In this document: piece by piece, positions 1,394 to 60,703 of the stretch | Layout: every line of letters starts with the position of its first letter | Numbering within the stretch: position 1 is the stretch's first letter | Origin: Thermoplasmata archaeon | Lineage (GTDB): Archaea > Thermoplasmatota > Thermoplasmata > GCA-020350865 | NCBI GenBank assembly: GCA_020348445.1 | Contig: CP070751.1 | Location: forward strand, 16,832 to 80,831 | DNA: 64,000 nucleotides | Reading direction: 5' to 3' | The notes under the pieces: model-generated | The model's database searches: none | Seen by the model: only the letters and a program-made list of their open reading frames with translations | Told to the model about the DNA's origin: nothing | Position numbers and translations under genes: made by a program

Positions 1394-2266
1394 TCATTTG
1401 ATGTCATTGGCCAGCTCCCTTCTTCTTTCTAGATTGGAGAAAACTGTCTTTTCATCCATGAACTCGTTCTCTGCCTCTGCAAAATATTCCACAGCCTTGA
1501 GTATCCCTTCTTTTGTGGGTTTGTTTATATCGAGTCCGGCCCTGGCTATCTCCTGACGAAGGATCACCATGGCCATCCTGGAATCAGAAAATCCCTCGCA
1601 GAAATCAACGATTATTACATCAAGTGCGCCTATAGGGGTGGTTCGGTCAGAATTTCGGCGTATGCCTGTTGCCGTAAGGATTTCATAGACTTTTTTTACT
1701 GGATCTTCATACTTACCTTCAGCAAGAACAAGATGCCCAAGTGCTTCAAATGCCTCCTCAACATTAATTGCCTCCTTGGCACTTGTGGAATAATTTGTTT
1801 TCAATGTACCTCTGAGGATTGTATCAGCAGCGCTGTTGTACCTTTTGGCCATATCCTCCAATTCCTCGGGCTGGAACTCGAAGTCTTCTTTCAAATCCGA
1901 CTTGTTGCACACGAAGATCATGGGCACCTCCTCCACGACCTTGAACAAAAGGGGAATCCAGTATCGCTCCAGACTTTTTAGGGTCTCCTTTCTTGTCAGG
2001 TCTGCTACCAGAATGGCACCGTCTACTCCCACGAACGTCCTGGTTTGAACGGCACTGTACCCTTCCCTGCCGATGAGATCCCAGATCACGAATGTGAGGT
2101 TGTGGGTCTGATCAGGTCTTTGGATCAAAAGGTTCTTTTTAGTGATCTTGCAGCCGACTGTGGAGATGTAGGAGCTTTCGAACACATCGAAGACATATCT
2201 TCGAATGAGGCTTGTCTTGCCCACTGCACTGTCCCCTAAAAGGGCTATCTTCTTTTTCACTGTCAA
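1394..2266 (-). CDS. Ras/Rab-like small GTPase fused to a ~110-aa C-terminal domain of unknown family (paralog 1)
   Basis: All five G motifs are readable: G1 GDSAVGKT, G2 YISTVG, G3 WDLIGRE, G4 NKSD, G5 TSAK. TTG start preceded by AAAGGTGAACAA, the same initiation region as paralog 5952-6830. The C-terminal half (TTPIGALDVIIVDFCEGFSDSRMAMVILRQEIARAGL...) is conserved in the paralog. Confidence 0.85.
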   Translation of the reverse strand: MTVKKKIALLGDSAVGKTSLIRRYVFDVFESSYISTVGCKITKKNLLIQRPDQTHNLTFVIWDLIGREGYSAVQTRTFVGVDGAILVADLTRKETLKSLERYWIPLLFKVVEEVPMIFVCNKSDLKEDFEFQPEELEDMAKRYNSAADTILRGTLKTNYSTSAKEAINVEEAFEALGHLVLAEGKYEDPVKKVYEILTATGIRRNSDRTTPIGALDVIIVDFCEGFSDSRMAMVILRQEIARAGLDINKPTKEGILKAVEYFAEAENEFMDEKTVFSNLERRRELANDIK

Positions 2267-4603: not shown

Positions 4604-5581
4604 CTATCTTTTCCAGTCAGGCCACCAACCTTTTGCGAGCTCCTCAGTCTGTTCAGTGCCGAAGTCGTATATATATACAGTCCATCCAGAAACACGTCCG
4701 CCTCCAGAGATACGTTTAGGCTTGGAAAATGCCTGTTGGGAATCATCGGGCGACCATGAGGGATAACGACTTTCTCCGCCGGAAACAAGCTGGGCTGTGG
4801 GGTTGCTCTGTGTCAAGTCCAGAGTGTATATAGCACTTCCATCAGATCCATCAAGAGCTGGCCATAACGTAAATGCCAGTTTATCTGGAGAACGAGACCA
4901 ATCTAGATCCTTAATACCTGCCTGTTCATAGTCATAGACTGTCACTGGGTCTTCTTCTGAATCAATTGTTAAGATATTGATATACGATTTACCGTCGATT
5001 GCTGTTGTCCAGTCAACAAATGCTATTTCTGTACCATCAGGGCTCCAGGCAATATCCACTAGATAATGCCCTTCATCTGCAGTATAAAGTGTATCAACTG
5101 AACCGTCGCTGAGAGAAATTGTCTGAATCAGCCTTGGGCGCTCACTACCCGTAGAAGGATCGTAGAGCTTTTGAATAAAGGCTATTTCACCACCCAAAGG
5201 TGACCATGCAATACTATATTGGATGTCTTGACACAGGAGTGTTGGTTCGCCTGCCTGCACTTCTCCTTCATTCACAGATATTTCAATAGTGTATAGATCA
5301 TGTGGAATGTTCTTGGTATATGCTATTGATGTTCCATCCGGTGCCCAGGTTGGACTGTATAGATTACCTGCTGAATCCACTTCGACCTGGTTAGTTCCGT
5401 CAGCATTCATCACCATGAGTGCATCATTTTTACCTACTTTAATAAACGCTATTGCCGGATCTGCTGGTGGTTCCTCATCAGGTGGTGGTTTTGGCGGTTT
5501 TTTTGCGGTAGCCATGGGTATGGCCATGCTCACAAGCAAGGACACTAATACTATGCCGATTAACAGCTTTCCTAGTTTCAT
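4604..5581 (-). CDS. secreted/lipid-anchored TolB-like beta-propeller protein (PD40/WD40-like repeats)
   Basis: N-terminal hydrophobic signal (MKLGKLLIGIVLVSLLVSMAIPMATA) followed by a Pro-rich linker. Repeated W(S/A)PDG..IAF motifs are typical of PD40 blades. Confidence 0.75.
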   Translation of the reverse strand: MKLGKLLIGIVLVSLLVSMAIPMATAKKPPKPPPDEEPPADPAIAFIKVGKNDALMVMNADGTNQVEVDSAGNLYSPTWAPDGTSIAYTKNIPHDLYTIEISVNEGEVQAGEPTLLCQDIQYSIAWSPLGGEIAFIQKLYDPSTGSERPRLIQTISLSDGSVDTLYTADEGHYLVDIAWSPDGTEIAFVDWTTAIDGKSYINILTIDSEEDPVTVYDYEQAGIKDLDWSRSPDKLAFTLWPALDGSDGSAIYTLDLTQSNPTAQLVSGGESRYPSWSPDDSQQAFSKPKRISGGGRVSGWTVYIYDFGTEQTEELAKGWWPDWKR

Positions 5582-5951: not shown

Positions 5952-6830
5952 TCAGTCTCCAACAATGCTTTCGGCCCACTCTCTTCTTCTTTTCATATTG
6001 GCTAAAACAATATCTCGATCTTTAAACTCACTCTCTGCTTCTGCTAAATACTCAACAGCTGTTAGAATCTTCTCTTTTGTGGGATTGTTAACATCGATTT
6101 TCGCTCTTGCAAGTTCCTGGCGCAGGATTAGCATTGCTATTCTCGAATCCTTGAAATCCTTGCAGAAATCCACCATTATAGCATCCAATGCACCAATGGG
6201 CGTTGTCTTATCCAAATTTCTCTGAATACCTGTTGCAAAGAGAGTTTCAAGGAGAATCTCAACAGTATTATCTGGTTTATACTCACTTAGCATAAAATTC
6301 CCCAAGCTCTCAAAGGCGCATTCGACATTGTTCCCATCTTTTGCACTGGTCGCATAGCAGGATTTTAATCCCTGAAATGTTGTTTTAAGGGATTGACCGC
6401 TGTATCTTCCCGCCAAATCCTCCATATCCTCGAATCCGAACTCGTATTTTCCTTTCAGATCGGATTTGTTACAAGTAAACACCAAGGGCACATTCTCTAC
6501 TATCTTGAACAAAAAAGGAATCCAATATTTCTCAAGGTTCTCCAGGGTCTCCTTTCTCGTAAGATCCGCCACAAGGATTGCACCTTCCACACCCACAAAG
6601 GTCCTGGCATGAAGGGCGTGATATCCCTCTCTACCGATAATGTCCCAGATCATAAATTTGACATCTACATTAGCGTTGGATCTATGAATGGAAAATTCCT
6701 TCATGGTTACCTTGCTTCCTATTGTGGAGGTATAGGAATCCTCGAACTGGTCGAAAACGAATCTTCGAATGAGGCTGGTTTTGCCTACGGCGCTGTCGCC
6801 GAGCAGGACGATTTTCTTTTTTATTGCCAA
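5952..6830 (-). CDS. Ras/Rab-like small GTPase fused to a ~110-aa C-terminal domain of unknown family (paralog 2)
   Basis: G1 GDSAVGKT, G2 YTSTIG, G3 WDIIGRE, G4 NKSD, G5 TSAK. TTG start after AAAGGTGAACAG. 39 nt downstream of the STAND ATPase gene. Confidence 0.85.
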   Translation of the reverse strand: MAIKKKIVLLGDSAVGKTSLIRRFVFDQFEDSYTSTIGSKVTMKEFSIHRSNANVDVKFMIWDIIGREGYHALHARTFVGVEGAILVADLTRKETLENLEKYWIPFLFKIVENVPLVFTCNKSDLKGKYEFGFEDMEDLAGRYSGQSLKTTFQGLKSCYATSAKDGNNVECAFESLGNFMLSEYKPDNTVEILLETLFATGIQRNLDKTTPIGALDAIMVDFCKDFKDSRIAMLILRQELARAKIDVNNPTKEKILTAVEYLAEAESEFKDRDIVLANMKRRREWAESIVGD

Positions 6831-6869: not shown

Positions 6870-9683
6870 CTACAAATCCTTGAGCGCTGCTCTCACCTTC
6901 TCTTTTTTCTTTTCCAACTTCAATTCCTTGTAAATATCGATTGCCTTGTTTAGTTGTTCTTTCGCTTTATTAGGATCTCCCTTAGCCTTCCACATCAATC
7001 CAAATTCGAAGTGGGATTCTGCCAATTCCCTTTTTATTCCAATTCCCTTAAAAATCTTTACGCTCTCTTCAAAATTCTCAATGGATTCCTTCCATTTTCC
7101 CTGGTTTGTAAATATAATTCCTAAAATTCTTCTCGAGCTTGCTAGGGTCACTTTTGAACCAATCTCTTTAGATAGTTCAAATGATCGTTTGCAGAAATCA
7201 AATGCTCTTGTCAGATCCTTTTTTCTAAGATAGGCTTCCGCTATAAACCAATAGTTGTAAGCCATCAGTATCCGGTAGCCGATCTTTATAACTATTTTCA
7301 TGCTCTTTTCGAATTGATCAAGGGCTTTGTCATATTCTCCTTTATAAAAGTGTGCAACACCAATGTTGTGTAAAATTACAGCAATCCTCTTTTGGTCACC
7401 CATCCTCTCATGTATTTCTTTGGTCCTATCATAGTATTCAAGGGCTTTGTCATACTCTTCTATTTCAACATGAACAATACCAATGTTCATCATGTGAATG
7501 GCAGTAAATTGCATATCACCGATTTGCTCCGAAATGCCTAGACTTTTTTTGTAGTATTCGAGAGCTTCATTATATTTTCCAATCCACATATGAATTATGC
7601 CGATATTGTTGAGGGACCCTGCGATTCCTTTTTTATCTTCTATTATTTCCCTTATCTTAAGGCTCTTATCGTAATATCCAAGCGCCATTTCTATTTCTCC
7701 TCTTTCTTGGTGCACAGTGCCAATTAGATTTAGGGCATCCGCTTTTTCCCTGCATTCCTCATCTCTAACCAAGAATAGTGCTTCATTACAAATTTTTATT
7801 GATTCATTATATCCTCCCATATGCCTATGACAGTTCCCAATCCCAATCTTAATCTCAGCTTTTTTCTTATTATCAATGCTCAATTCCAATGCACGCTCGT
7901 AAGCCTTGATACTATTCTGATAATCCCCAATCAAGGAATAAATACCTGCCATTTCTTCGAGTGTTTTCCTCCTCTTTTTCGGATTATCCTCAAGTCCAAG
8001 AGCATAGGAATAGAATCTTATTGATTCTTCATTTGAATAATCCTTCTTTGCCTTCTCCGCCGCTTTAAGGAGATAGTGAAGTGCTTTGTCCTTATTCTTG
8101 CATTGATAATAATGAAATGCTAAATCTTCAACCACTTCATCCAGATTATCTTGGCTCAGTGTCTCAACCGAGTTTGCGATTATCGAGTGATAATCCCTTC
8201 TCAATTCTTCTGGTATTTCGCTGTAAAGCACCTCTTTTACTTTGGCATGGTCGAACTTGAAATATCCATTATGGGATTTGAGTAATCTATGAACTTGCTC
8301 TAAACTTCTCAACTGCTCTAAAAGTTGAGTTCTGTTCGTATCCAGGGCATAGGTTAGGATCGATGATGTGAACGTTTCTCCGATGATAGAAGCATAATCC
8401 AATACCTTCCTGTCTTCTTTTTCCAATCTGTTCAATCTTCTTTCAATCACGTTGTATATTTTGGATGGGATTTCGATATCTTTTAGATCTTTGGCTAACT
8501 TCCATGTTCCCTCATCTTCCAAAATGATCTTTTCATCGACTAGGAATTTTATTAAAAGGATAAAGAACAATGGATTCCCTTCGGTCTCCTTGTAGATTCG
8601 ATTCTTAAATTCATCAGTGAAATCGATTTTTCCAAGCAGGACAGACAAAAATTCGTCCATAATCTCTTCGGGTAATCTCGCAAGCTCCATCTTTTTCAAC
8701 AGATCCTCGCGGTCCATCAACTGCATGGTTCCCACAAGAGGATGACTCTTTTCATCCATTGAAGCAACATCCTCAGGTCTATAAGTGCCCATAATAAATA
8801 GCCCAGTCTCTCTCGTGTTTCTAGCGAGGTAGTGCATTAGAGCTAAGGATGATAGGTCTGTCCATTGTAAGTCTTCTATGCATAAAAGAGTGGGCATTTG
8901 CTGTGCCTGCCTTATCAATCCCAAAGAGACATTCTCGAATAATAAATTCCTTCTAATCTTTGGATCATCTTTACCATAATAGATACCGTCATACTTTCCG
9001 GATGTGATAAGAGGTTTGAGGAGCTCGTCGATTCCAGCAACCTTTTTTTCGTCACCACCCCATTTCTCAAGGATTCGTTTAAAAGTTTTTGTTATCTTTA
9101 ATAGGATCTCTCTCATATCGTTTAGCAGGAATTCATTTTCTCTTCCTGTTAGTATAACCACAAGATTGGTATCCTTATAATTATCGATTAATATACGATA
9201 ATTCTGGTATCCTAACGAATTCAAAGTTCCTTTTTCTTCCTCTCCAGACAGCTTTGAAAGAGATTCATTAAGAAAGTCAGTTATAGTGGTAAACATTGAT
9301 GCAAAAACATCAGGATTAAGTTCTGTTTCTTCTCTCACAAGATTTCTTATTAATATGCCCGCATTGGTTACCAGATAAACAGCTTCCACTCGTGGGGCTT
9401 CCTCTGCAAAAAGCGATTCCAGGCCTACAGATCTCAGGGCTTCCATAATGGGCATGAAGGGAGTAAGGGATTCATACATGCAGTTACCTGACAAGATCTG
9501 GAAGCCTTTGGATTGAGCAATCTCTTTCAGCTCGTTTACCAAACGGGTCTTTCCGATTCCTGCCTCCCCTGAGATGAATATTGTCCTTCCTTGCCCTTCC
9601 ATGGCTCTTTCTAGATAAGACTGCAGTTCTCTGAGTTCATCCTCGCGACCAACCATCTTGGGTTGGAGATCTAGATTCTGCAT
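6870..9683 (-). CDS. STAND-type (AAA_16/COG3899-like) ATPase with Roadblock/LC7-like insertion and C-terminal TPR array
   Basis: Likely start is ATG 9683 (MQNLDLQPKMVGREDEL...). The 45 codons upstream in the ORF track run through an AT-rich promoter. Walker A GEAGIGKT, Walker B-like LLCIEDLQWTD, and more than 10 TPR-like repeats (G.Y.EAL.YY.K.L.I). See the separate insertion feature. Confidence 0.8.
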   Translation of the reverse strand: MQNLDLQPKMVGREDELRELQSYLERAMEGQGRTIFISGEAGIGKTRLVNELKEIAQSKGFQILSGNCMYESLTPFMPIMEALRSVGLESLFAEEAPRVEAVYLVTNAGILIRNLVREETELNPDVFASMFTTITDFLNESLSKLSGEEEKGTLNSLGYQNYRILIDNYKDTNLVVILTGRENEFLLNDMREILLKITKTFKRILEKWGGDEKKVAGIDELLKPLITSGKYDGIYYGKDDPKIRRNLLFENVSLGLIRQAQQMPTLLCIEDLQWTDLSSLALMHYLARNTRETGLFIMGTYRPEDVASMDEKSHPLVGTMQLMDREDLLKKMELARLPEEIMDEFLSVLLGKIDFTDEFKNRIYKETEGNPLFFILLIKFLVDEKIILEDEGTWKLAKDLKDIEIPSKIYNVIERRLNRLEKEDRKVLDYASIIGETFTSSILTYALDTNRTQLLEQLRSLEQVHRLLKSHNGYFKFDHAKVKEVLYSEIPEELRRDYHSIIANSVETLSQDNLDEVVEDLAFHYYQCKNKDKALHYLLKAAEKAKKDYSNEESIRFYSYALGLEDNPKKRRKTLEEMAGIYSLIGDYQNSIKAYERALELSIDNKKKAEIKIGIGNCHRHMGGYNESIKICNEALFLVRDEECREKADALNLIGTVHQERGEIEMALGYYDKSLKIREIIEDKKGIAGSLNNIGIIHMWIGKYNEALEYYKKSLGISEQIGDMQFTAIHMMNIGIVHVEIEEYDKALEYYDRTKEIHERMGDQKRIAVILHNIGVAHFYKGEYDKALDQFEKSMKIVIKIGYRILMAYNYWFIAEAYLRKKDLTRAFDFCKRSFELSKEIGSKVTLASSRRILGIIFTNQGKWKESIENFEESVKIFKGIGIKRELAESHFEFGLMWKAKGDPNKAKEQLNKAIDIYKELKLEKKKEKVRAALKDL
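9084..9395 (-). other. Roadblock/LC7 (MglB-like) domain-like insertion inside the NTPase domain
   Basis: About 100 aa between Walker A and Walker B: VEAVYLVTNAGILIRNLVREETELNPDVFASMFTTITDFLNESLSKL...LNSLGYQNYRILIDNYKDTNLVVILTGRENEFLLNDMREIL. By eye this follows the beta-beta-alpha-beta-beta(-alpha) pattern of Robl_LC7. No profile search was run. Confidence 0.55.
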
Positions 9684-9830
9684 CTTCCCCCCACAATGAT
9701 TTATTATCCCCGGGCTATTTATATACAAAACGTTTTTAAAATATATAAGGTTATATGTAAATTTGTGAGATTTTAAAAAATATGAGAGGAATTTAGCAAT
9801 GTTTCTAAAATATTGCATTTTTATAACTTT

Positions 9831-9898
9831 TTACTCCCAATCCAAAAGCCTCTTTTCGCCCTCGAGTTTTTTCATATCAGTTACATCCTGCGAGACCA
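9831..9898 (-). pseudogene. remnant of the 3' end of a PAS-domain (DUF438-type) gene, copy 2
   Basis: Reads ...MVSQDVTDMKKLEGEKRLLDWE-stop versus the intact gene end LEVSQDVTDIKKLEGENRLLDWE-stop. About 68 nt align to 10879-10946 with 6 mismatches. An upstream in-frame stop leaves no gene body. Confidence 0.7.
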
Positions 9899-9981
9899 TG
9901 AGAGGGATAATAGCTACAATAAGTTAAAAAAAAAACCCAAAGGTCAACTCTCGTCATTACTTTAAAATCCAAACCATAGTG

Positions 9982-10485
9982 TTAACTTTTAGCAATTCTT
10001 TCCATAATAGTTTTATAGAGAACCACTGTCATTCTAAAGTCACTCTCAGCAAGCTTGGCAATTACCTCCTTGGCCTTCTTTTTATCGATTTTTTTCATCT
10101 CGACCGCAGCTACAATCAAACCCAAAAGCCCGGTATAATCTCTATTCTCAACATCCGCAACCCTTCTTGCATTTAGCTCGTCTATAATCAGCCTCGCCTT
10201 TTTTTCAGTGAAAAATAAAGTCGCCTCGCCTTCGCCTAAACCATATTTTGTAAACTGTTTCACATTCCCCTTCACTCTAACTGATATTATCCAATCTCCC
10301 ATTGCTTGCATGATCTTGTCAGTTTCTGGATAGTTATGGCCAAGAAGCTCTTTCTCGATGGATTTTGTAATATATATTTTACCCAACAATTTTTTTAAAA
10401 GGTCAAGCTCTCCAATCCTGGATAACGCGATTATGGTGGATGAGTCCACAAAAGTTCTCATACTGACACTCAGCTTTTGAGCCAT
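9982..10485 (-). CDS. PIN-domain toxin (DUF3368-like)
   Basis: The N-terminus VDSSTIIALSRIGELDLLKKLLGKIYITKSIEKEL matches the typical DUF3368/PIN start. Overlaps the upstream antitoxin gene by 16 nt. An alternative start is ATG 10461. Confidence 0.7.
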   Translation of the reverse strand: MAQKLSVSMRTFVDSSTIIALSRIGELDLLKKLLGKIYITKSIEKELLGHNYPETDKIMQAMGDWIISVRVKGNVKQFTKYGLGEGEATLFFTEKKARLIIDELNARRVADVENRDYTGLLGLIVAAVEMKKIDKKKAKEVIAKLAESDFRMTVVLYKTIMERIAKS

Positions 10486-10790
10486 TTCTTGGCTTTCCTT
10501 GTGTCCTTCTCAAGTTCGCTTTCCGAGTATTTGAAGAATGGTATCTCTCTTTTCCCCAGATAGTCAGCCATTTCTTGGATGCTTACATCCGCAAACTCCG
10601 CTGCCCTACATAATGTAAATTCATTGCTCAGGTATTTCTTTTGAGCGATTTCCAGTTTTAAAACCTTAATACCTTCATGAAGTGCATTTCTTGCCACTTC
10701 TGATTTGGTCATATGGAGAATCTCGATTAACTCCTCCATTTCCGATATTTCATCATCGGGTAATCGTATCTGCAAGTTTTCCATATTCAA
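10470..10790 (-). CDS. UPF0175-family antitoxin-like protein
   Basis: 106 aa with an HTH-like segment CRAAEFADVSIQEMADYLGKREIPF, characteristic of UPF0175 partners of DUF3368 PIN proteins. N-terminal RHH-like strand IRLPDDEISEMEELI. Confidence 0.65.
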   Translation of the reverse strand: MNMENLQIRLPDDEISEMEELIEILHMTKSEVARNALHEGIKVLKLEIAQKKYLSNEFTLCRAAEFADVSIQEMADYLGKREIPFFKYSESELEKDTRKAKKWLKS

Positions 10791-10878
10791 CCCATTACAA
10801 TATAATGTTTTGTAATGATATAAAGGTTGTGGTTGTTATTATCTGCAAGTTGTAAGGCAATTGTTTTTTGGGGTTCCT

Positions 10879-12681
10879 TTACTCCCAATCCAAAAGTCTG
10901 TTTTCACCCTCAAGTTTTTTGATGTCAGTTACATCCTGCGAGACTTCAAGGGTGCCCTTGTAAATACCCTCAGAATCCCTCACAGCAAAATATCTAATAT
11001 GTATGAACTTACCATCCAACTGCAGCCAGAACTCGGCAACGTCCTTGTAACCTGCCTTGAATTGATTTAGTATTTTTTGGACGGTATCCACGCTCTTTGA
11101 GGGATGGCATTTCTGAACCTTCCTTCTGATCACTGCGGGACTTCTTGGGAAGATCCTCTCCTTGGTTGCAGAATAATACGCAACCCTATCAGTCTCATCA
11201 ACAAAAGAAATATCCACTGGGAGATGAGTCAGTATCAAATCGATCTGCTCCTTGGATAGAGCGCCTGTAGCCAGAGGTATCTTCTGCTCTTTAACAGGTA
11301 TTTCCAGTATTTGCACCTCTTTTGGCATTTCAAAATCCTCAGGTGGCCATTTCTCCTCAGGTTCAACCCAGGCATAACCTATCTCCTCTTCACCAGATCG
11401 CACCTTTGTCCACTCTGATTGGGATAGTTGTTCAAGACTCATGGGAAACAGTATGTGCTCCTCCTTGTAGATCATCTCCCGGGTTGTTGGGATCAATTCC
11501 TTTAACGTCTTCACAAGTGCGGTGGGTTCCTCCTGGGATAACAGCTCACTTGCCTTTTTTAGCAATGTCCTTACATCATCATGTATTCCCCACATGACCT
11601 GTGAAGGTCCTGAGACATCATGGGACTCAAGCATCGGAAACAGCTGGTTCTCCTTTCTCAGATAATGATAGTCGATCTTGGCAAAGCTTTCAAGTAATCT
11701 CCCCAGTCCTCCACGACAGTCCAAAAATACAGTCTCATTTGGAGGATCCCCCAGCCTTTTCAGCATCTCCTCGATTTCATCCATGATCTTTTCAGCTTCC
11801 CTGTTCTCCTTCATGAATGTGTGAACAGGGTGACCTGGGGGTGCAGTTGGAATCTCTTTTTTATCAAGCGATTCCTTGAAAATCTCAACATGAACATCAC
11901 AAAGTCTCTTTACTTCTTCCTCGGGAATACCCTCATCAATCAATTGTTGCTCCATCTTTGATATCTCGGAGGGATCGACATCCTTTATGAGCTCTCTGAA
12001 TTTATTCTTCAGAACATTCATGTCCTCCCCTTCATGAACCCCCCTTATGATTTCCTTTAGAACCTCCTGCCTTTTATCAGATTCTACTAACTGTTCTTTG
12101 GGTTCCTCAAAAGGTTCTTTAGGTTCTTCAAAAGGCTCTTTAGGTTCCTCAATAGGTTCCCTAGGTTCCTCAAAAGGTTCCTTGGGCTCCTCAATATGTT
12201 CTTTGGATTCCTCAATAGGTTCCTTGGGCTCCTCAAAAGGTTCTTCAAAAGGTTCTTTGGGCTCTTCAAAAGGTTCTTTGGGTTCCTCAAAAGGTTCTTT
12301 AGGTTCTTCAAAAGGTTCTTTGGGTTCCTCACCAGGCTCCTTGGGCTCCTCAAAAGGTTCCTTGGGTTCTTCAAAAGGTTCCCTAGGTTCTTCAAAAGGT
12401 TCCTTGGGCTCTTCAACAGTTTCTTTGGAAAATTCAACCTTAATAACAAGCTCTTCGTTTGTCTTCTCCAAAACCTCCCGTGCGATCTCATTCATAAGCA
12501 GGTTAAGTTCGATTTTACCCATGGATGCTACTTTTTCCAATGTGGCAACCTTGGCCATGGTCTTACGTAAGATACGGCTCTTCAATTGTCGTAAGTCAGG
12601 CGAAAGTTCGGCTAAAAAATCCACCAGAAAAGGATATCTGCTCAATAGAACATCAAGTTTGGTATTAGCGTCAATTTTCAT
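10879..12681 (-). CDS. DUF1858 / DUF438 / hemerythrin-like / PAS domain protein with internal acidic Pro-rich repeat
   Basis: N-terminus MKIDANTKLDVLLSRYPFLVDFL (DUF1858-like). Middle region has His/Glu-rich hemerythrin-like helices (HPVHTFMKENREAEKIM, DYHYLRKENQLFP). C-terminal PAS domain (FVDETDRVAYYS...IRYFAVRD). 108-aa EEPKEPF repeat. Confidence 0.8.
   Translation of the reverse strand: MKIDANTKLDVLLSRYPFLVDFLAELSPDLRQLKSRILRKTMAKVATLEKVASMGKIELNLLMNEIAREVLEKTNEELVIKVEFSKETVEEPKEPFEEPREPFEEPKEPFEEPKEPGEEPKEPFEEPKEPFEEPKEPFEEPKEPFEEPFEEPKEPIEESKEHIEEPKEPFEEPREPIEEPKEPFEEPKEPFEEPKEQLVESDKRQEVLKEIIRGVHEGEDMNVLKNKFRELIKDVDPSEISKMEQQLIDEGIPEEEVKRLCDVHVEIFKESLDKKEIPTAPPGHPVHTFMKENREAEKIMDEIEEMLKRLGDPPNETVFLDCRGGLGRLLESFAKIDYHYLRKENQLFPMLESHDVSGPSQVMWGIHDDVRTLLKKASELLSQEEPTALVKTLKELIPTTREMIYKEEHILFPMSLEQLSQSEWTKVRSGEEEIGYAWVEPEEKWPPEDFEMPKEVQILEIPVKEQKIPLATGALSKEQIDLILTHLPVDISFVDETDRVAYYSATKERIFPRSPAVIRRKVQKCHPSKSVDTVQKILNQFKAGYKDVAEFWLQLDGKFIHIRYFAVRDSEGIYKGTLEVSQDVTDIKKLEGENRLLDWE
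12091..12414. repeat. 21-nt (7-codon) tandem repeat encoding about 15 copies of EEPKEPF
   Basis: Directly visible in the DNA and the protein. It generates three spurious repeat-frame ORFs in the track. Confidence 0.95.
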
Positions 12682-12750
12682 TTTTTACCCCCCTGTAATC
12701 CAAGCCTACATCGAATAGGAAAATATAAATGTAATGGCCAAATTTGGGCT

Positions 12751-13755
12751 CTACCTAAGATATTGACCGCAAGTTTTGCATTTGGATTCATGCTCCAGAT
12801 TGACTGTTTGACAGCTTGGACATTTTACATAACCCACTGGGACAACTGCTGAATCATCCCCCTTTGGTATTTGCTGTTCATAATCCATATCTCTTTTATA
12901 CCGAGGTTGCGGGCTCTGATATGTGGGATAATGACCTCCTGAATCTTGATATGTGTGTGGAGGTGTTACCTCCATTAGGTCAGACGGTATTATATTGACC
13001 TGTCCTGTCGTGGCATACCGATAGAGGGCCGCGGTAAGCACTCCCTGGGCTGCTGTGGAAATGCAGAAAAGAACTATGAAATAGACTATCCCCACACTCA
13101 GGCCCACCCAAATCCAAATTCCGCCTGCCATGATCCCCAAGACGATTGGAATCACTCCTAAAAGACCGAATAAGAAGAAGATTATTCCCAGGCCAAAGGA
13201 GGATATAAACGTCTCTCCCCATGTATCCTTGAAAACATGGGCACTTCTTTTGACGGCTTTAAAAACTGATACCTTCTCATATATCAAAACAGGTATTATA
13301 AAGAAAGTGGCCATGGTCCACGCAAATCCAATTAATGAGATCATGATTCTTCCCAGGGCATCCATTCTTTCTTCAAGTGCCCTTAATATCAAACCAACTG
13401 TTGCGGCAAGTACTGCCCACCCCAGTATTCCCTTTATATTTTCATTGGCGATTCTAAAACCGTCTTTTAAGGTGGGGTCGCCGCCCTGTAACCTAATGGT
13501 AGCGCATCCGATCACAGCGGTATTGAAATATATTCCAATAAAATAAAGTATAAAATAGAGCAAAATAAACAATACCACCATTAGGATACCATTTGAAAGG
13601 AAAAGACCTGTAAAAAAGATGCCCAGGATAAATGTCATTCCTATCACTGCCATAACTATACCTGCTATCAGAGGAAACAGCAGTATTTCCTTATCCTTTC
13701 TTATGACACCCAAGCTGATTTTCATGAGCTCCCAACTACGACCAAATCGACCCAT
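12751..13755 (-). CDS. polytopic membrane protein with C-terminal zinc-ribbon
   Basis: 334 aa with about 6 hydrophobic helices. Tail is Pro/Tyr/Gln-rich and ends CPSCQ...CKTCG. Confidence 0.6.
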   Translation of the reverse strand: MGRFGRSWELMKISLGVIRKDKEILLFPLIAGIVMAVIGMTFILGIFFTGLFLSNGILMVVLFILLYFILYFIGIYFNTAVIGCATIRLQGGDPTLKDGFRIANENIKGILGWAVLAATVGLILRALEERMDALGRIMISLIGFAWTMATFFIIPVLIYEKVSVFKAVKRSAHVFKDTWGETFISSFGLGIIFFLFGLLGVIPIVLGIMAGGIWIWVGLSVGIVYFIVLFCISTAAQGVLTAALYRYATTGQVNIIPSDLMEVTPPHTYQDSGGHYPTYQSPQPRYKRDMDYEQQIPKGDDSAVVPVGYVKCPSCQTVNLEHESKCKTCGQYLR

Positions 13756-13902
13756 TTGATCACCTCGATGTTATAAATTCAATTTTTAATCAAGACCCAA
13801 ATCCAATTTATCTATAATAAATATATTGTTATTATTATCGTCGTGAACTTAAAGTGCAAATGTAGGTTCATAAGAGCAGAATGTCAACGGGCAAATCAGT
13901 AT

Positions 13903-14826
13903 CTATCCTTCTAATATGTCTCCTTTTACGCCAATTGTGTAATCCTTTACTGGGATATCTTTGCCTGAATCTCCAATGGCATCCTGAATCAGCTTCACAA
14001 GACCAAAGCAGCACAGAACCTCCATATGAGCAACTGTTATGGATTTTATATTGTTGACCTTAAGAATCTGGGCGATCTTCTCCCTATAGAATGCGTAGTC
14101 ATCCAATTTAGGACAGCCTACAAGCAGTATCTTGTCTTTCAAGAAACCATTGTGGAAATCGGGGTATGCAAAGGGAACGCAGTCAGCAGCAATCAAAAGA
14201 TCAGCATCTTTAAAATACGGTGCATTTGGAGGAACCAACATGATCTGAACGGGCCACTGTCTCAGCTGGGATACTCCTTTAGGAACTACCTTTGTAACCT
14301 CCTCAACGCATTCCTCTTCTTCTTTTCTAAGATCCATAACTGCAGATCCTAGACATCCGCAGGGAAGTGTATCCTCCTTCTTTTCTTCCCGAAGGTCCAT
14401 CACAGCTGAGCCCGGGCATCCGTGGACTCCACCTTGAGAAGGGGCAGGCTCCTCTTTGGGCTCTTCCCCAAGTTGCGGAACCTCCATAATGTTCTCCTTT
14501 AGGTAGTCTATTGCCTGGTTCAAATATTCAGTTTGACCGTGTTCTTTGAGATGCACAAGATGAGCCTCAATAACATTGGGTCCCTCCTTTACAACATTAG
14601 CCATGACCTTTTTCTCATCGTACTCCTCGGCCTCTCTTTCCTCAATTGAAATGGCATCAACTGGGCAGTGGCCAATGCAGGCTCCAAGCCCATCACAGAA
14701 TAAATCTGAAATTATTCTTGCCTTGTCATCAATAATTTGAAGAGCTCCTTCGGGACAGTTGGGAATACAATCTCCGCAGCCCGTACAAGTATCCTCATCG
14801 ATCTTGATTATCTGTCTTTTTACCAT
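13903..14826 (-). CDS. 4Fe-4S dicluster domain protein with duplicated C(P/L)GSAVMDLR motif
   Basis: CTGCGDCIPNCP and CDGLGACIGHCP ferredoxin motifs at the N-terminus. Internal duplication HGCPGSAVMDLREE / CGCLGSAVMDLRKE. C-terminal Cys-containing domain. Confidence 0.7.
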   Translation of the reverse strand: MVKRQIIKIDEDTCTGCGDCIPNCPEGALQIIDDKARIISDLFCDGLGACIGHCPVDAISIEEREAEEYDEKKVMANVVKEGPNVIEAHLVHLKEHGQTEYLNQAIDYLKENIMEVPQLGEEPKEEPAPSQGGVHGCPGSAVMDLREEKKEDTLPCGCLGSAVMDLRKEEEECVEEVTKVVPKGVSQLRQWPVQIMLVPPNAPYFKDADLLIAADCVPFAYPDFHNGFLKDKILLVGCPKLDDYAFYREKIAQILKVNNIKSITVAHMEVLCCFGLVKLIQDAIGDSGKDIPVKDYTIGVKGDILEG

Positions 14827-15196
14827 CTAATTCACTCCTTCTTTCACAGTATTTTTTAATCTTTTCCATATACTCCTTCATTTTCTTCTCTTCATCCTCA
14901 GTTCTTTTTTTATCCTCTCTTGTAGCTTCTTTAGCCTTCATATATTTGGTATAAGCCTCCTCCCCAACACATTCTTTTCCATAATCGCACCATTCGATGC
15001 AAGTTGGAACTTCTTCCTTTAGGACATTGCTCCCGCACACCTGACATTTACGTGAGAATTCGTGGGTCCATATCTCAACCTCAGCACCGCATTTTCCGCA
15101 TTTGAAGAACTCGGGAATGGGTTCTTTTATTCTCGAGGCGCCGGGGCACGAGAATTGCGTCAATTTATTGCTCATCTCCTTTTGTATTGGGTTCAT
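14795..15196 (-). CDS. Cys-rich zinc-ribbon protein with Lys/Glu-rich tail
   Basis: 133 aa with FSCPGASR, CGKCG...CQVCG, CIEWCDYGKEC. Overlaps the downstream ferredoxin-like gene by 32 nt. Confidence 0.55.
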   Translation of the reverse strand: MNPIQKEMSNKLTQFSCPGASRIKEPIPEFFKCGKCGAEVEIWTHEFSRKCQVCGSNVLKEEVPTCIEWCDYGKECVGEEAYTKYMKAKEATREDKKRTEDEEKKMKEYMEKIKKYCERRSELDGKKTDNQDR

Positions 15197-15365
15197 ATCT
15201 TGGCTTTTTACATTGCACTAGGACATAATATAAACACTATAATATATATAGGTTGTTGCTATACTTAATAGGCATTATAATTCATCAATCTATTACATAT
15301 AATCTATTATCCAATATTATATGGGGTTTTCGAATATTTTCCAACACCCGCCATACCAGGGATTC

Positions 15366-16100
15366 TTAAACGAGTCTCTCATCCACGAGGGTCAGGAGAT
15401 TCACGACCTCGATATCTGCACCTATAAGGTCACGCCCGAAATTTAAGGACCGCTCACAGAAAGGGCAGGCCGTGACAATAACTGAGGCACCTAATGATTG
15501 GGCTTCTTTTACTATCAAGTAAGACATGGAATCTGCAAGGTCCTTGTTCAGGGCTCTCAAACCTCCACCTGATCCGCAGCAGAGTGCCTTTTCCCCGTGG
15601 TATGAAAGCTCTTTGAGTTTCAGGTTCGGGATTTTATTTAGTATCTCGCGGGGCTCCTTTACAACACCCAATCCCTTGGCAAGGTGACATGAGTCATGGT
15701 AGGTCACAGTGATTGGATTTGGATTCTCGAAATTCATTTTGTCAAGGTTCTGGGATAGAAATTGGGTCACATGAAGGGGCTTTTTATCTAGGTCATATTG
15801 CTTGGTGAATATCTGAGTGCACCCCGGACATGGTGAAACCAACTGGGAATCACCTTCTGTTTCACTTTTTATTACTGGTTCCATTTTAGCCTTGTTTTCT
15901 TCTGCAACATCAGAAAGTCCTATTCCCCAGAGAGTTGAAGCGCAGCAGGAGTTCTGATTGTCATCCTTGTCAATCACGTCGAATTTGAGGTTCATTTTTT
16001 CAAGAACAGATTGCAAGGATTTCATGGTGTTGTCAAAATAGTACCGCGTTGTGCATCCGTGCCACAGCTTTATTGAGTTTCCATTATCAGGGCCTGCCAT
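15366..16100 (-). CDS. CCG-domain (Fe-S)-binding oxidoreductase subunit (LutA/GlcF/HdrD-like)
   Basis: Two Cys-rich CCG-type motifs (SCCAS..., CCGSGGG, CPFC). Preferred start is ATG 16100 with SD GGGGTGAT, 1 nt after the upstream stop. Confidence 0.7.
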   Translation of the reverse strand: MAGPDNGNSIKLWHGCTTRYYFDNTMKSLQSVLEKMNLKFDVIDKDDNQNSCCASTLWGIGLSDVAEENKAKMEPVIKSETEGDSQLVSPCPGCTQIFTKQYDLDKKPLHVTQFLSQNLDKMNFENPNPITVTYHDSCHLAKGLGVVKEPREILNKIPNLKLKELSYHGEKALCCGSGGGLRALNKDLADSMSYLIVKEAQSLGASVIVTACPFCERSLNFGRDLIGADIEVVNLLTLVDERLV

Positions 16101-16101
16101 C

Positions 16102-17313
16102 TCAATCACCCCTTCCATAAGGATTTCCAAAGGTCCTTACATTCTCAGCAATAGTCATGTGCTTTTTAGGGGCGAGGTTTTCCGCAACTGCATTGTTACG
16201 GATGTTTAAAAGAAAATCAGGCAGGGGAATTCCCAGGGGACATGCGATCTCGCAGTTTCCGCATAAGGAGCAGTTGTACAGTCCCTCTGAAACTGATTGC
16301 TCAACACCTGAAGTGAAATTCAGAAGCACAAGTTCCCTTGGGGTTCGATACTCCCCCTCCTTCATAAAAAGGGATCTGGGACAGACTGAGCCGCAGGCTC
16401 GGCAGTTGATGCACTGTAGGAACTCCGAGAACTCACCAGCCACAAGATCCGATCTTCCATTGTCCAAAATGATCACGTGGAGGTTGTTTTCCAAAGTGCC
16501 TGTTGTTTTAGAGAACTTTTTTGGGAGTTCATCAACATGAACCTTCTGAAACTCAGTGTCGTAGGAAAGTATCCCAAGAAGCAGGCTCGGAAGACCGAAC
16601 ATCCCGGACGCCCGAGAAATGTATTTGGCCTGTTCAGAATCATTTACTATCTTTTCCAGGCTCACTACCAAAATCGTCTCTTTGGACTGCGATATCAGAC
16701 TTGAGATGTTGTTGAAGTGCTGGACAAAGAAGAAGCTTCCGTCCTTTGAGGATACAGAATTTGCACCGATGAGAGAGGCAAACTCAAGTGGTTTTTTGTA
16801 CTTGATTTTAAAAATGTCAAAGGATTTCCAGATATGATCCTCAGATATTTTAGGAATTTCCCATAAATCAAGATGCTTGGCATCTTCGATCTCTTTCTGG
16901 CTTGCATGGTACGTATCAAATACTGTAATGTCCTTGGGAAGGTCCCCTATGATCTCCTTTACAACTGAAGAATTGTTGATGCAAACATTCTTTAGATCGG
17001 CTTTTGTCAGCACCTTTTGAATATAAGAAGCTGCATCTGAAGAGGTCTTGGCATTGTAGGTGTCGATTCCTTTTCCCTGCAAAAAAAATGTGAGATTTTT
17101 TACATTTGATTCGAGATTTTTTAGGCTCGTCTCTCTTATAGATTTTAACTGCTTCTTGATTTCTTCAATATCTATTTCCTGATAATCCTTGTCATCCAAC
17201 TTCCTTAGCTTGGAATAAATGAAGTGCTCTCTTATAAGATTGGCAGAAGGCTCTAAAACGTGGATGGGTATTCTTGTTTTCTGTGACTGTGAGTCTGATT
17301 TGCTTTTATTCAA
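16102..17313 (-). CDS. LUD-domain / 2x[4Fe-4S] protein (LutB-like)
   Basis: CINCRACGSVCP and CSLCGNCEIACP motifs after a LUD (DUF162)-like region. TTG start with SD GGAGGT 8 nt upstream. Confidence 0.65.
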   Translation of the reverse strand: MNKSKSDSQSQKTRIPIHVLEPSANLIREHFIYSKLRKLDDKDYQEIDIEEIKKQLKSIRETSLKNLESNVKNLTFFLQGKGIDTYNAKTSSDAASYIQKVLTKADLKNVCINNSSVVKEIIGDLPKDITVFDTYHASQKEIEDAKHLDLWEIPKISEDHIWKSFDIFKIKYKKPLEFASLIGANSVSSKDGSFFFVQHFNNISSLISQSKETILVVSLEKIVNDSEQAKYISRASGMFGLPSLLLGILSYDTEFQKVHVDELPKKFSKTTGTLENNLHVIILDNGRSDLVAGEFSEFLQCINCRACGSVCPRSLFMKEGEYRTPRELVLLNFTSGVEQSVSEGLYNCSLCGNCEIACPLGIPLPDFLLNIRNNAVAENLAPKKHMTIAENVRTFGNPYGRGD

Positions 17314-37464: not shown

Positions 37465-40215
37465 CTACTTTTTTTTCATTCTTTTCTTTTCTTGTGCTAT
37501 TCCTAAAAGCATCTTTGCCTCTTCACGTAGATGTGGGGGGGCTTTTTCGAGTAACTCTTCAGCTTTCCTTGAGGATTTTACTTTAGTTTCAATATATTTC
37601 GCTACTAGATTTACAGGTTCGAATGATGGATATATTTTCTCATCTTCAGAGAAATCCTTTTCAAAGCATTCAAGGATTTCAAGAGTTTCCCAGATGAGAG
37701 TGGTTTTTCCCAAGTGGATAAAATTTTGAAAAAGAGTAAGTAAAAGTTGAACACCTAACTGGGTTGAAACTCCAGGTTTTCTAAGGTTTTCAAGTAAGGA
37801 TTCTAATTCTTCTCGAAAGTTAAAAGATGAGTTACTAACAATGAGGGTTTGAATCTTATTCGTCTTGACGATAGATGCTATGACCCAGTCATCTTTTTCA
37901 GTTAAGAGAACCAATGCTTTATCATATGCTTCCATTGCTTCTTTATGTCTTCCGAGGTGAAAGAGTATATTACCTTTGTTGTTCCAAGCATTGGCATATT
38001 TTGAATTGATTTTCAATGCTTTATCACATGCCTTAAGTGCTTTTTGATACTTTTTTAAGATAAAGAGAGTATTGCATTTGTTGTTCCATGCTTTTTCAAA
38101 ATTTGGATTAATTTTCAAGGCCATCTCGAACACTTCTAAAGCCTTTTGGAGCCTTCCTAGTTCTTTAAGAGCAATGCCTTTATTGTTCCAAGCTTCAACT
38201 AGTTTTGGATTGATATCCAGGGCTTTTTCACAGGCCTCTAGACCTTTTAAAGGTTTTCCAAGATTCGTGAGAGCGAGGCCTTTATTGTTCCATGCCTCCG
38301 ATAAATTGGGGTTGATTTCTAGAGCTTTTTCACAGGCTTCTAAAGCTTCAAGGTGCCTTCCAAGTTTGATAAGAGCATTGCCTTTGTTATTCCATGCTTC
38401 TGCGAGATTTGGATTGATTTTTAGGGCTTTTTCACAAACCTTTAGACCTTCCTTGAATCTTCCAAGGTATATAAGAGTGAGGCTTTTATTGTTCCATGCG
38501 ATAAACAAATCAGGATCGATATCAATAGCTTTATTATAACTATCCAAGGCTTCCCTTAGTTTCCCTAAAAGACCAAGAGTGACACCTTTGTTGTACCATA
38601 TAAGGGCATTATCAGGCTTAATCTTTAAAGCTTTATCAATTGCTTTTAATGCATCTTGGTATCTTTTAAGATAACCGAGAGTACTGCCTTTATTCACCCA
38701 TGCTATAATATCATCTGGATTGATTTTTAAGGCTTTATTATATGCATCAAGAGCTTCTCGATGCCTTCCTCGGTTAAGATTAATCTCACCTATATTACGC
38801 CATCCACTAGCTTCAACTTCCCTATCTTTCTTTCTCTTTGCAGCTCTTATAGCTTTTTCAAAAACACCTAAAGCTTTATCAAGTTTTCCTTCTTCTACTA
38901 AAGTCATTCCCAATGTCATGGCCGCGGAGACATATTCCTCCTTTAGACTTTCAAAAGCACGTCTTATGGGAACTGAAGCCATGTCAGGGTCTGTTAAACC
39001 GCCGAATCGTTCTACAAATTCTTCTATAGTATAATATGCATGGATAAATTCCAGAATATACTTACCCTCAAATGTAGCATCCTTGACATGAGTTTTTAGG
39101 TACCATATACCAAAAATAGGATTGCTCAGGCGGTGGAATACCTTACGACCTTCCTTATGATGAACTGTAAGGAATCCTTTCTTCTTCAATTTGGAAAATA
39201 AAGCTCTATTTCGGCCCCGCTCATTCTCAGATCCATTCTCAAAGATATCCTCAAATGAAAAGTTAGCTTTAGTCATATTTGGTGAAAGGTTACGCACTAT
39301 CTGACCAAAAACGTAACGCTCTTGCGAACTGAGTCCTGCATCGATTCCTTCAAAATAAGGTGATAGGCGATCTAACATAGAATCAAACGACTTTGCGATG
39401 TCCTGAGGCTCCTCTAAAAGGAGCACCTCATACAATGAGACACCAAGCCGAGGATACCCAGAGGTTAGATGATGCATAGATCTGATTTTTATCGATATTT
39501 CTTTTCTCAATTTTCCATTGTCATCTAAGAGGGTCTCTCCATCATAAAACCTAGCCATTCTTTCCATCATATCTAGGAAATCTTTCTCGTTCAGAGGTTT
39601 TACATCGTGTACTTTGAAAAATGCCCAGAAACGAGATTTGTACTTCCATATTGACTTTGGTATTTCGGTTGCTGTTCCAATTAAAAGGATGTTACTATGG
39701 TTCTCAAGGAAGGCTCTCATTCCTTCAAAACCTTTATCACGCGGCCGCATTTCCATCAATTCTTGGAGATTTTCCATCATTAAAACAATTTTCTTTTTAT
39801 ATAACTTCTCAAACCGTTTCTCAACTATTTCTAATTTTTCTTCAAAATATACTGCCGGTGTCTTTTCAATAGGGAGGTTAAGTAGGCGATAAAGTTCCGT
39901 CGTAATACGTAAAAGGATATCGCTTAAATCTTGAGCATCATGAACGCATTTGTAATCAGTGAATAACAGCGGGATAATAGACTGTTTTTTGTTATATCGT
40001 TTGTATATTTTTTTTTCAAAAAAACGTAAAAGAGCACTCTTTCCAACCCCACGTTCTCCAACCAGTAAAAGATGATTTCGAGAATCATTCTTTATAAATT
40101 TGTTAACAGCGTTTTCCATAATTTTCAAAAGTTCCTCTCTGTCAGTGAATATATCATTAAGCTCAGCTGGGGAAAGCGCATCAGGATCAAAAAGTGGAGG
40201 GCTTCTCTTTACCAT
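37465..40215 (-). CDS. AAA+/ORC-Cdc6-like ATPase with wHTH and long C-terminal TPR array
   Basis: Walker A GERGVGKSALL, Walker B-like VLMMENLQEL, and about 10 near-identical TPRs (AWNNKG.AL..LGR..EAL....KAL.INP). Start ATG 40215 with SD AGGAGG, 4 nt after the upstream stop. Confidence 0.75.
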   Translation of the reverse strand: MVKRSPPLFDPDALSPAELNDIFTDREELLKIMENAVNKFIKNDSRNHLLLVGERGVGKSALLRFFEKKIYKRYNKKQSIIPLLFTDYKCVHDAQDLSDILLRITTELYRLLNLPIEKTPAVYFEEKLEIVEKRFEKLYKKKIVLMMENLQELMEMRPRDKGFEGMRAFLENHSNILLIGTATEIPKSIWKYKSRFWAFFKVHDVKPLNEKDFLDMMERMARFYDGETLLDDNGKLRKEISIKIRSMHHLTSGYPRLGVSLYEVLLLEEPQDIAKSFDSMLDRLSPYFEGIDAGLSSQERYVFGQIVRNLSPNMTKANFSFEDIFENGSENERGRNRALFSKLKKKGFLTVHHKEGRKVFHRLSNPIFGIWYLKTHVKDATFEGKYILEFIHAYYTIEEFVERFGGLTDPDMASVPIRRAFESLKEEYVSAAMTLGMTLVEEGKLDKALGVFEKAIRAAKRKKDREVEASGWRNIGEINLNRGRHREALDAYNKALKINPDDIIAWVNKGSTLGYLKRYQDALKAIDKALKIKPDNALIWYNKGVTLGLLGKLREALDSYNKAIDIDPDLFIAWNNKSLTLIYLGRFKEGLKVCEKALKINPNLAEAWNNKGNALIKLGRHLEALEACEKALEINPNLSEAWNNKGLALTNLGKPLKGLEACEKALDINPKLVEAWNNKGIALKELGRLQKALEVFEMALKINPNFEKAWNNKCNTLFILKKYQKALKACDKALKINSKYANAWNNKGNILFHLGRHKEAMEAYDKALVLLTEKDDWVIASIVKTNKIQTLIVSNSSFNFREELESLLENLRKPGVSTQLGVQLLLTLFQNFIHLGKTTLIWETLEILECFEKDFSEDEKIYPSFEPVNLVAKYIETKVKSSRKAEELLEKAPPHLREEAKMLLGIAQEKKRMKKK

Positions 40216-40219
40216 TTTA

Positions 40220-48744: not shown

Positions 48745-48894
48745 TTTGTACACCTTTTTACCCATCTTTTTGCGTTTTTTTCGGATAAGGGATATTGTCT
48801 CCTCAGTAAACCACTATTGATTATTATTATATAAATATTATATGGTAATTACCCATCTTAACCACATAACCAAGGCCTATTTGGGCTTTTTGGT

Positions 48895-60566: not shown

Positions 60567-60703
60567 TCCTATTCCCCCTATCCATTGTGTAGTCACAACT
60601 CCAGTTCCATGCAATAGGCCACCTCCTGGAATTGGACCAGGTATTTGAATAATATATGGATATATAAGTTTATCTTTTTATCTGGTCTTGGTCTCCCTCA
60701 ATC

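Follow-up and report, generated by a model that had tools for sequence, protein, structure and literature searches.

A STAND ATPase of a Thermoplasmata archaeon with a predicted Roadblock/longin-type domain nested between Walker A and Walker B and a Rab-like GTPase gene next door

A 64,000-nucleotide stretch of contig CP070751.1 (positions 16,832 to 80,831; assembly GCA_020348445.1), referred to below as the window, was analysed. It belongs to the metagenome-assembled genome (MAG) of a Thermoplasmata archaeon, and its proteins are UCE37686 to UCE37723. One minus-strand gene encodes a 937-residue STAND ATPase whose nucleotide-binding domain is interrupted, between the Walker A and Walker B motifs, by an insertion of ~150 residues. 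The insert is predicted to fold as a divergent domain of the Roadblock/longin superfamily, and the neighbouring gene encodes a Rab-like small GTPase. A member of the same GTPase subfamily also accompanies this domain in a membrane protein that contains neither an ATPase nor tetratricopeptide repeats (TPRs).

The boundaries of the ATPase gene were set by comparison with homologues. The open reading frame (ORF) spans 6870..9818 on the minus strand; the start conserved among homologues, whose N-termini in the multiple alignment read MQNLDFQP and similar, is the ATG at 9683, which yields 937 residues. The protein comprises an AAA_16 nucleotide-binding domain with the nested insert, a helical arm and C-terminal TPRs. 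The Pfam AAA_16 score is 87.7 bits (cutoff 32.6) and that of TPR_12 is 199.9 bits, TIGR03903 aligns to residues 241–561, and the two STAND-type motifs, GEAGIGKT and LLCIED, are both present. The Pfam scan revealed no toxic effector domain, be it a nuclease, a protease, TIR or another, and no effector domain at either terminus, the N-terminus included. Apart from its interrupted nucleotide-binding domain the protein is a bona fide AAA_16 STAND ATPase. Its gene and component parts are as follows.

6870..9683, minus strand: STAND NTPase gene, 937 residues (ORF, Pfam AAA_16 and TPR families, conserved start).
9546..9569, minus strand: Walker A motif (P-loop) GEAGIGKT, residues 39–46 (motif, invariant across homologues).
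9066..9392, minus strand: Roadblock/longin-like core of the insert as predicted, residues ~98–206, β1 β2 α β3 β4 β5 α (AlphaFold2, Foldseek, sub-threshold Robl_LC7).
8964..9065, minus strand: insert tail, helical, with the return linker, residues ~207–240 (model helices, alignment conservation).
8856..8888, minus strand: Walker B strand LLCIEDLQWTD, residues 266–276 (motif and model strand at 265–270).
6873..8126, minus strand: C-terminal TPR sensor region, residues ~520–937 (Pfam TPR_12, TPR_1, TPR_2, TPR_10 and TPR_MalT).

The Walker A and Walker B motifs lie 226 residues apart. The spacing is 207–226 residues in 13 homologues that carry the segment and 72–133 residues in 20 ordinary AAA_16 proteins recovered by the same search, so that the initial annotation was right to place the distance, given there as ~220 residues, above the AAA_16 norm. 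At 226 residues the protein falls outside the range of a contiguous nucleotide-binding domain (about 70–130 residues between the two motifs), and this enlarged spacing is what makes it a variant of the AAA_16/COG3899 type. Because residues 10–296 match only AAA_16 profile positions 2–165 of 167 (164 positions), ~120 residues are extra. The segment is a true insertion into the AAA_16 core, as the initial annotation had held. Opposite residues ~91–240 the multiple alignment shows a clean gap in the ordinary AAA_16 proteins P0029, P0031, P0038 and P0044, and a second AAA_16 and TPR protein of the window (37465..40281), which serves as an internal control, has no insert. The annotated stretch, 9084..9395 on the minus strand, translates to PRVEAVYLVTNAGILIRNLV...LLKITKT and corresponds to residues 97–200. 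The whole insert is wider, at residues ~91–240 (window ~8964..9413, ~150 residues). Its tail contains short helices at residues 202–227 in the AlphaFold2 (AF2) model and, in alignments A2 and A4, two conserved motifs, W-x-G and SGKYDG; SGKYDG is found in the copies of the domain nested in STAND proteins and not in the aligned non-STAND copies.

The AF2 model of the insert alone, built on a 21-sequence alignment, has a mean confidence (pLDDT) of 81 and a predicted TM-score (pTM) of 0.76. The model of residues 1–329, built on 27 sequences, has a pLDDT of 86 and a pTM of 0.81, and the same insert fold recurs in it at residues 98–200. The secondary structure comprises strands at residues 98–106, 111–116, 154–159, 162–169 and 172–179 and helices at residues 124–145 and 184–200. 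Both independent models give the order E-E-H-E-E-E-H, with several short helices after it, and the DSSP assignment describes an α-β-α sandwich with a five-stranded antiparallel β-sheet in the order β1-β2-α2-β3-β4-β5. The strand-strand-helix-strand-strand-helix pattern that the initial annotation had read by eye thus holds in outline, with one strand overlooked. In the 1–329 model the insert lies after the helix behind P-loop strand β2 and ahead of the one from which the chain enters the Walker B strand; the remaining ATPase core is intact and the insert sits beside the nucleotide pocket.

A Foldseek search of the Protein Data Bank (PDB) with the insert model resulted in 74 matches at E ≤ 1e-3, and the best 50 of these are all members of the Roadblock/longin superfamily. 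The 50 listed matches include MglB, MglC, dynein LC7, the Streptomyces Roadblock protein 3KYE, LAMTOR/MP1-p14 and the GATOR-Rag-Ragulator complex, together with zeta-COP, AP sigma subunits, VAMP7, Ykt6 and Prometheoarchaeum Roadblock2 and Roadblock3. All 50 are protein–protein platform domains. The Foldseek probability is 1.00 for MglB, MglC, LC7, 3KYE and LAMTOR, and the highest TM-scores among the listed matches, 0.55–0.63, are those of the longin domains of VAMP7 and Ykt6, VAMP7 being the best at 0.63. The prediction therefore agrees with the α-β-α sandwich anticipated in the initial annotation, with MglB among its matches. Ahead of β1 the 1–329 model contains only the short ATPase helices 77–84 and 89–92, such that an N-terminal helix α1 is not evident, and the order of elements agrees with the longin order β-β-α-β-β-β-α-α. 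When the whole 1–329 model was used as the query, the best matches were RuvBL1/2 at a TM-score of only about 0.3; therefore, no solved protein shares this architecture.

The relationship is much less visible in the amino acid sequence. The initial annotation had named the segment Roadblock/LC7-like, a reading that the predicted fold supports, and had proposed Pfam Robl_LC7 (PF03259) as a test; the window segment yields no Robl_LC7 match at E ≤ 10 and no Pfam or NCBIfam model matches it. Among 21 homologous inserts, three have Robl_LC7 scores that stay below the gathering cutoff of 23 bits (17.2, 13.7 and 12.6 bits), and their alignments are colinear over positions 9–90 of the 91-position model. 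Two of 30 more diverse members also match Robl_LC7, with a best E value of 0.045. The JGI pipeline gave the COG2018 name 'Roadblock/LC7/MglB family' to three homologue fragments, and true MglB proteins are named alike. Comparison by hhalign with an MglB profile, which is shallow because the M. xanthus MglB seed gave only close relatives (≥ 76% identity), places the β1-β2 hairpin in register with a probability of 49% and P = 2e-4, and in global mode all elements are colinear. Against single sequences the hhalign probabilities are 21% for MglB and 2% for human LC7. Longin-type sequence signals are negligible (Sybindin, E 0.1; AP-1 sigma, E 0.37). With the diverse domain alignment A4 as the query, a database search retrieved just 13 proteins, none of them a PF03259-bearing intermediate. 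Weak matches to Pfam CTD8 (ABC-3C) in 4 of the 21 members, at 21.4 bits versus a cutoff of 27.6, were judged non-significant. On the strength of the models, the insert is classed as a divergent member of the Roadblock/longin superfamily and not as a bona fide PF03259 member. The label is kept at superfamily level because there is no significant Robl_LC7 match and because the order of elements fits a longin domain, or MglB minus α1, as well as it fits LC7.

The gene of the Rab-like GTPase UCE37689.1 is located 40 bp downstream of the STAND gene on the same strand, and the two genes are probably co-transcribed. The GTPase carries the motifs GDSAVGKT (G1), DIIGRE (G3, without the catalytic Gln) and NKSD (G4), and its closest solved relatives are a Thorarchaeota Rab and Rab11/Rab5. 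The genes of this neighbourhood are listed below.

5952..6830, minus strand: Rab-like small GTPase, 292 residues, UCE37689.1 (Pfam Ras, Roc and Arf; closest solved structures).
1394..2266, minus strand: second Rab-like GTPase, a 290-residue paralogue with the G3 motif DLIGRE, without an adjacent STAND gene in the window.
4604..5581, minus strand: PD40 beta-propeller protein with an N-terminal signal or anchor sequence (Pfam PD40, sequence).

Both GTPases of the window have a conserved, helical-looking C-terminal extension of ~110 residues (residues ~180–292) that has no Pfam match. The idea that this C-terminal half is a Rag-like Roadblock partner of the insert was dropped, given that its sequence looks all-helical and matches no Pfam family.

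The gene neighbourhood was compared with related loci, abbreviated L001–L025, some of which were collected by a search with 7 closer sequences. A member of the GTPase family flanks 8 of about 16 insert-bearing STAND genes. It is immediately downstream of the STAND gene in the window, in L001, in L005 (two genes, one of the GTPases being degraded) and in L016, and immediately upstream in L010, L011 and L013; in L004 it is ~2.6 kb away from a ninth STAND gene. PD40 homologues adjoin the STAND genes in L001, L004, L005 and L016. No stand-alone Roadblock gene was found in the window or in 17 related loci by phmmer with MglB and LC7 as queries. In L005 (CP070672.1, 4.23-Mb Thermoplasmata genome), positions 8001..16623 contain an array of four or more insert-bearing STAND genes, with Rab-like GTPase and PD40/Tricorn_N genes interspersed among them, and the STAND-GTPase-PD40 cassette is paralogously expanded there. 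A carbon monoxide dehydrogenase (prismane) gene lies beside the cassette both in L005 and in the window. Some STAND homologues are split into two consecutive ORFs near residues 476–548, namely P0001 with a following ORF of 474 residues (L001, 8001..10913), P0002 with one of 456 residues (L004, 791..3713) and P0015 with one of 460 residues (L003, 2036..5079). The splits may reflect frameshifts, pseudogenes or assembly errors and, taken with the degraded 56-residue GTPase fragment of L005, suggest that paralogues turn over rapidly.

The domain and the GTPase are also linked outside STAND proteins. P0172-type membrane proteins of ~550–580 residues carry two tandem copies of the domain at the cytoplasmic end, preceded by N-terminal transmembrane helices and an extracytoplasmic region (L018–L025, for example L019, 249..2510). 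In all seven loci with readable flanks the gene of this protein is convergent with a GTPase gene, at protein identities from 85% down to 49%. The linked GTPase is 187–190 residues long, belongs to the same subfamily as the window GTPase, to which it is 41% identical, and has the G3 motif DLIGSK; the GTPases linked to tandem membrane proteins are without the ~110-residue C-terminal extension. The catalytic Gln is replaced in both groups of partner GTPases, the motif being DxxGR in 9/9 STAND-linked and DxxGS in 5/5 tandem-linked copies. This second linkage, to one and the same GTPase subfamily in a protein devoid of both ATPase and TPRs, is the strongest argument that the domain itself, and not the TPR region, is the part associated with the GTPase.

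A profile of the insert matched 4803 cluster representatives at E ≤ 1e-3, and 2591 at E ≤ 1e-10, among 1.84 billion proteins. The best 150 matches are mostly proteins of ~1000 residues with the domain at residues ~90–240, and a Walker A motif occurs no more than 130 residues upstream in about 123 of 193 domain instances. Where a source is named, it belongs either to Thermoplasmata/Methanomassiliicoccales or to Asgard MAGs (Hermod-, Heimdall- and Hodarchaeales). By these sequence matches, the nested architecture is common in metagenomes, mainly in Thermoplasmata and Asgard archaea. The initial annotation had considered the architecture unusual; this is true relative to described proteins and not true of its frequency in nature. 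Some profile matches have N-terminal extracellular-type domains, and outside ATPases two or three copies of the domain also occur in proteins of 1200–2400 residues with CARDB and DUF5915. Among the latter, the giant proteins P0049, P0061 and P0114 (1231–2171 residues) contain 2–3 copies ~500 residues apart, CARDB and a C-terminal DUF5915, and no GTPase was seen near the relatives examined. The presence of the domain in several unrelated architectures identifies it as a mobile module and not as an elaboration of a loop.

Roadblock and longin folds are obligate dimer formers, and eukaryotic regulators of Rab, Rag and Arf GTPases are built on recurring Roadblock/longin platforms. The tandem copies of the domain in non-STAND proteins are in keeping with a fold that functions in dimeric form. 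Since the 937-residue protein has no N-terminal effector domain, the insert is proposed to be its output module. With somewhat better than even confidence, we regard the insert as a GTPase docking platform through which an ATP-gated STAND switch relays to a GTP switch. The TPR region would sense a signal, and ATP-dependent switching or oligomerization of the STAND protein would follow. The inserts of neighbouring protomers would then meet and form the dimeric platform typical of the Roadblock/longin fold. This platform would bind the Rab-like GTPase encoded 40 bp downstream and act on it in the role of GAP (GTPase-activating protein), of GEF (guanine nucleotide exchange factor) or of scaffold, such that the ATP switch drives the GTP switch. 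The Gln-less GTPase probably needs a partner for cycling. The data establish that the insertion exists, which fold is predicted for it, how widely it is distributed and that it is genomically linked to the GTPase; dimerization, GTPase binding and the direction of regulation are inferred. In its more specific form the proposal is tentative, and we hold it at somewhat below even: the STAND ATPase with its nested domain may be an ATP-gated GAP, GEF or activating scaffold of a Gln-less Rab-like GTPase, and would then be a widespread system of Thermoplasmata and Asgard archaea, related from the prokaryotic side to the longin/Roadblock GEF and GAP platforms that serve eukaryotic membrane traffic.

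Several observations weigh against a GTPase-docking Roadblock/longin platform. The sequence similarity of the insert to Roadblock proteins is below every curated threshold, and the insert profiles A2 and A4, run with HMMER against PDB sequences, retrieve no Roadblock protein; SlmA and designed helical proteins appear as noise and AP-1 sigma at E 0.37. The AF2 models were built on alignments of only 21–27 sequences. About 7 of the 16 STAND loci have no small GTPase within 5–6 kb, and neither do any of the more distant clades of the domain family. The GTPase of the window is of the Rab/Ras type and its DIIGRE motif keeps the Asp of DxxG, which the MglA type, the partner of MglB, lacks. A large survey from 2014 saw no case of a prokaryotic Rup GTPase coupled to an MglB homologue (PMC4316618).

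Alternative roles for the insert were weighed against the same data. The insert may be a module for homo-oligomerization or dimerization, or a structural brace similar to domain II of RuvBL1/2, in which case the GTPase would act on the TPRs or be merely co-regulated. This would suit a dimer-forming fold with tandem copies in non-STAND relatives, and RuvBL1/2, whose Walker A–B insertion regulates and assembles, are the best matches of the whole nucleotide-binding domain; the STAND loci that have no nearby GTPase point the same way. Nonetheless, the brace leaves the 7/7 linkage of domain and GTPase in the membrane tandem type, which has no ATPase or TPRs, without explanation, and we consider it unlikely. 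A sensor or ligand module, which would bind a small molecule, peptide or lipid in a longin- or profilin-like fold and gate ATP binding or hydrolysis, the GTPase being unrelated, would account for the predicted position of the insert next to the nucleotide pocket and for the occurrence of the domain in large surface or membrane proteins with CARDB and DUF5915 and no GTPase nearby. However, the protein already possesses a large TPR sensor and no small-molecule sensor occurs among the 50 listed fold matches, which renders this role improbable.

A role of the cassette in anti-virus defence or conflict, as an Avs/STAND-type system whose effector parts would be the insert and the GTPase, is very improbable. 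The STAND and TPR architecture, the paralogue arrays with frequent split or degraded copies in related genomes and a toxin-antitoxin-like PIN/UPF0175 pair next door would agree with such a role. However, PADLOC assigns to the STAND protein only generic TPR models and weak P-loop matches (SngB and BrxD, E > 8e-4) and has no meaningful match to the GTPase, to the PD40 protein or to the tandem protein, and the toxic effector domains sought in the Pfam scan are missing. That the Roadblock/longin resemblance is convergent or a modelling artefact, the segment being a family-specific elaboration of a variable AAA_16 linker, is hardly credible. Every sequence-based score is indeed under threshold; however, two independent and confident models give one fold, the listed fold matches all belong to one superfamily, the three sub-threshold Pfam alignments are full-length and colinear, and the domain moves between architectures and is linked to the GTPase in two of them.

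A platform nested in an ATPase differs from each of the known systems that it resembles. In prokaryotes, relatives of the Roadblock and longin domains have been known in the form of small, free-standing proteins that partner with MglA-type GTPases. The insert shares with MglB and other Roadblock/LC7 proteins (PF03259, COG2018; also the actinobacterial conservon pair CvnB-CvnD) the predicted fold, the strand order and an MglB-like C-terminal helix, and like them it is encoded beside a small Ras-superfamily GTPase. However, the known members are stand-alone proteins of ~100–160 residues, whereas the insert is nested in an ATPase, falls under the Pfam threshold and has no evident helix α1. The eukaryotic and Asgard platforms for Rab, Rag and Arf GTPases (Ragulator/LAMTOR, TRAPP, DENN/FLCN, the longin domains of VAMP7 and Ykt6, and Prometheoarchaeum Roadblock2/3) match the insert in predicted fold, and the GTPase encoded beside the insert is Rab-like. 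In contrast, they are separate subunits or terminal domains without the drive of a P-loop ATPase, and the carriers of the insert are Thermoplasmata as well as Asgard archaea. With the AAA_16/COG3899 STAND NTPases (MalT, AfsR, the adenylate-cyclase- or kinase-fused relatives and TIGR03903) the protein has the Walker motifs, the helical arm and the TPR sensor in common, and instead of an effector at a terminus it has a folded domain of ~150 residues inside the nucleotide-binding domain. RuvBL1/RuvBL2 (Rvb1/2, Pontin/Reptin) are AAA+ proteins that also have a folded domain between Walker A and Walker B. The analogy is limited to architecture (TM-score ~0.3), because their insert is the OB-fold domain II, the ATPase is of another class and there is no GTPase link. 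In RagA/Gtr1-type GTPases, as in the 937-residue protein, a P-loop NTPase and a Roadblock domain share a single polypeptide; their Roadblock domain is C-terminal to the GTPase domain, whereas here it lies within the ATPase, and a separate gene encodes the GTPase.

Some other genes of the window were noted as follows, all on the minus strand. Directly upstream of the STAND gene, at 9982..10790, a PIN-like (DUF3368) gene overlaps a UPF0175 gene, and the pair looks like a toxin-antitoxin module. A protein with DUF1858, DUF438, hemerythrin and PAS_10 domains is encoded at 10879..12681; about 20 tandem acidic proline-rich repeats of the EEPKEPF type (about 12090..12480) separate its N-terminal domain from DUF438, and these repeats also produce long spurious ORFs on the opposite strand. 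The gene of the insert-free AAA_16 and TPR protein (938 residues) overlaps the end of an archaeal ATPase_2/AAA_22 gene, the pair spanning 37465..41377. Large predicted surface proteins are encoded at 45109..48765 and 56763..63913; they comprise an S8 subtilase with purple-acid-phosphatase-N/fn3 repeats and two Big_5/Big_13 Ig-like repeat proteins of 1283 and 1069 residues.

Searches of full-text literature, the coverage of which excludes most subscription journals, found no description of a Roadblock or longin domain inside a STAND ATPase, and the nested architecture is apparently widespread but undescribed. Outside RuvBL-type AAA+ proteins, it provides a further clear example of a domain placed between Walker A and Walker B. 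If the coupling to the GTPase is functional, archaeal signal transduction would gain a new class, represented by the cassette, with a GTP switch under the drive of an ATP switch. The cassette would also provide a tractable prokaryotic model for Roadblock/longin platforms that act on Rab-like GTPases, and it would widen the pool of lineages able to contribute such modules before eukaryogenesis.

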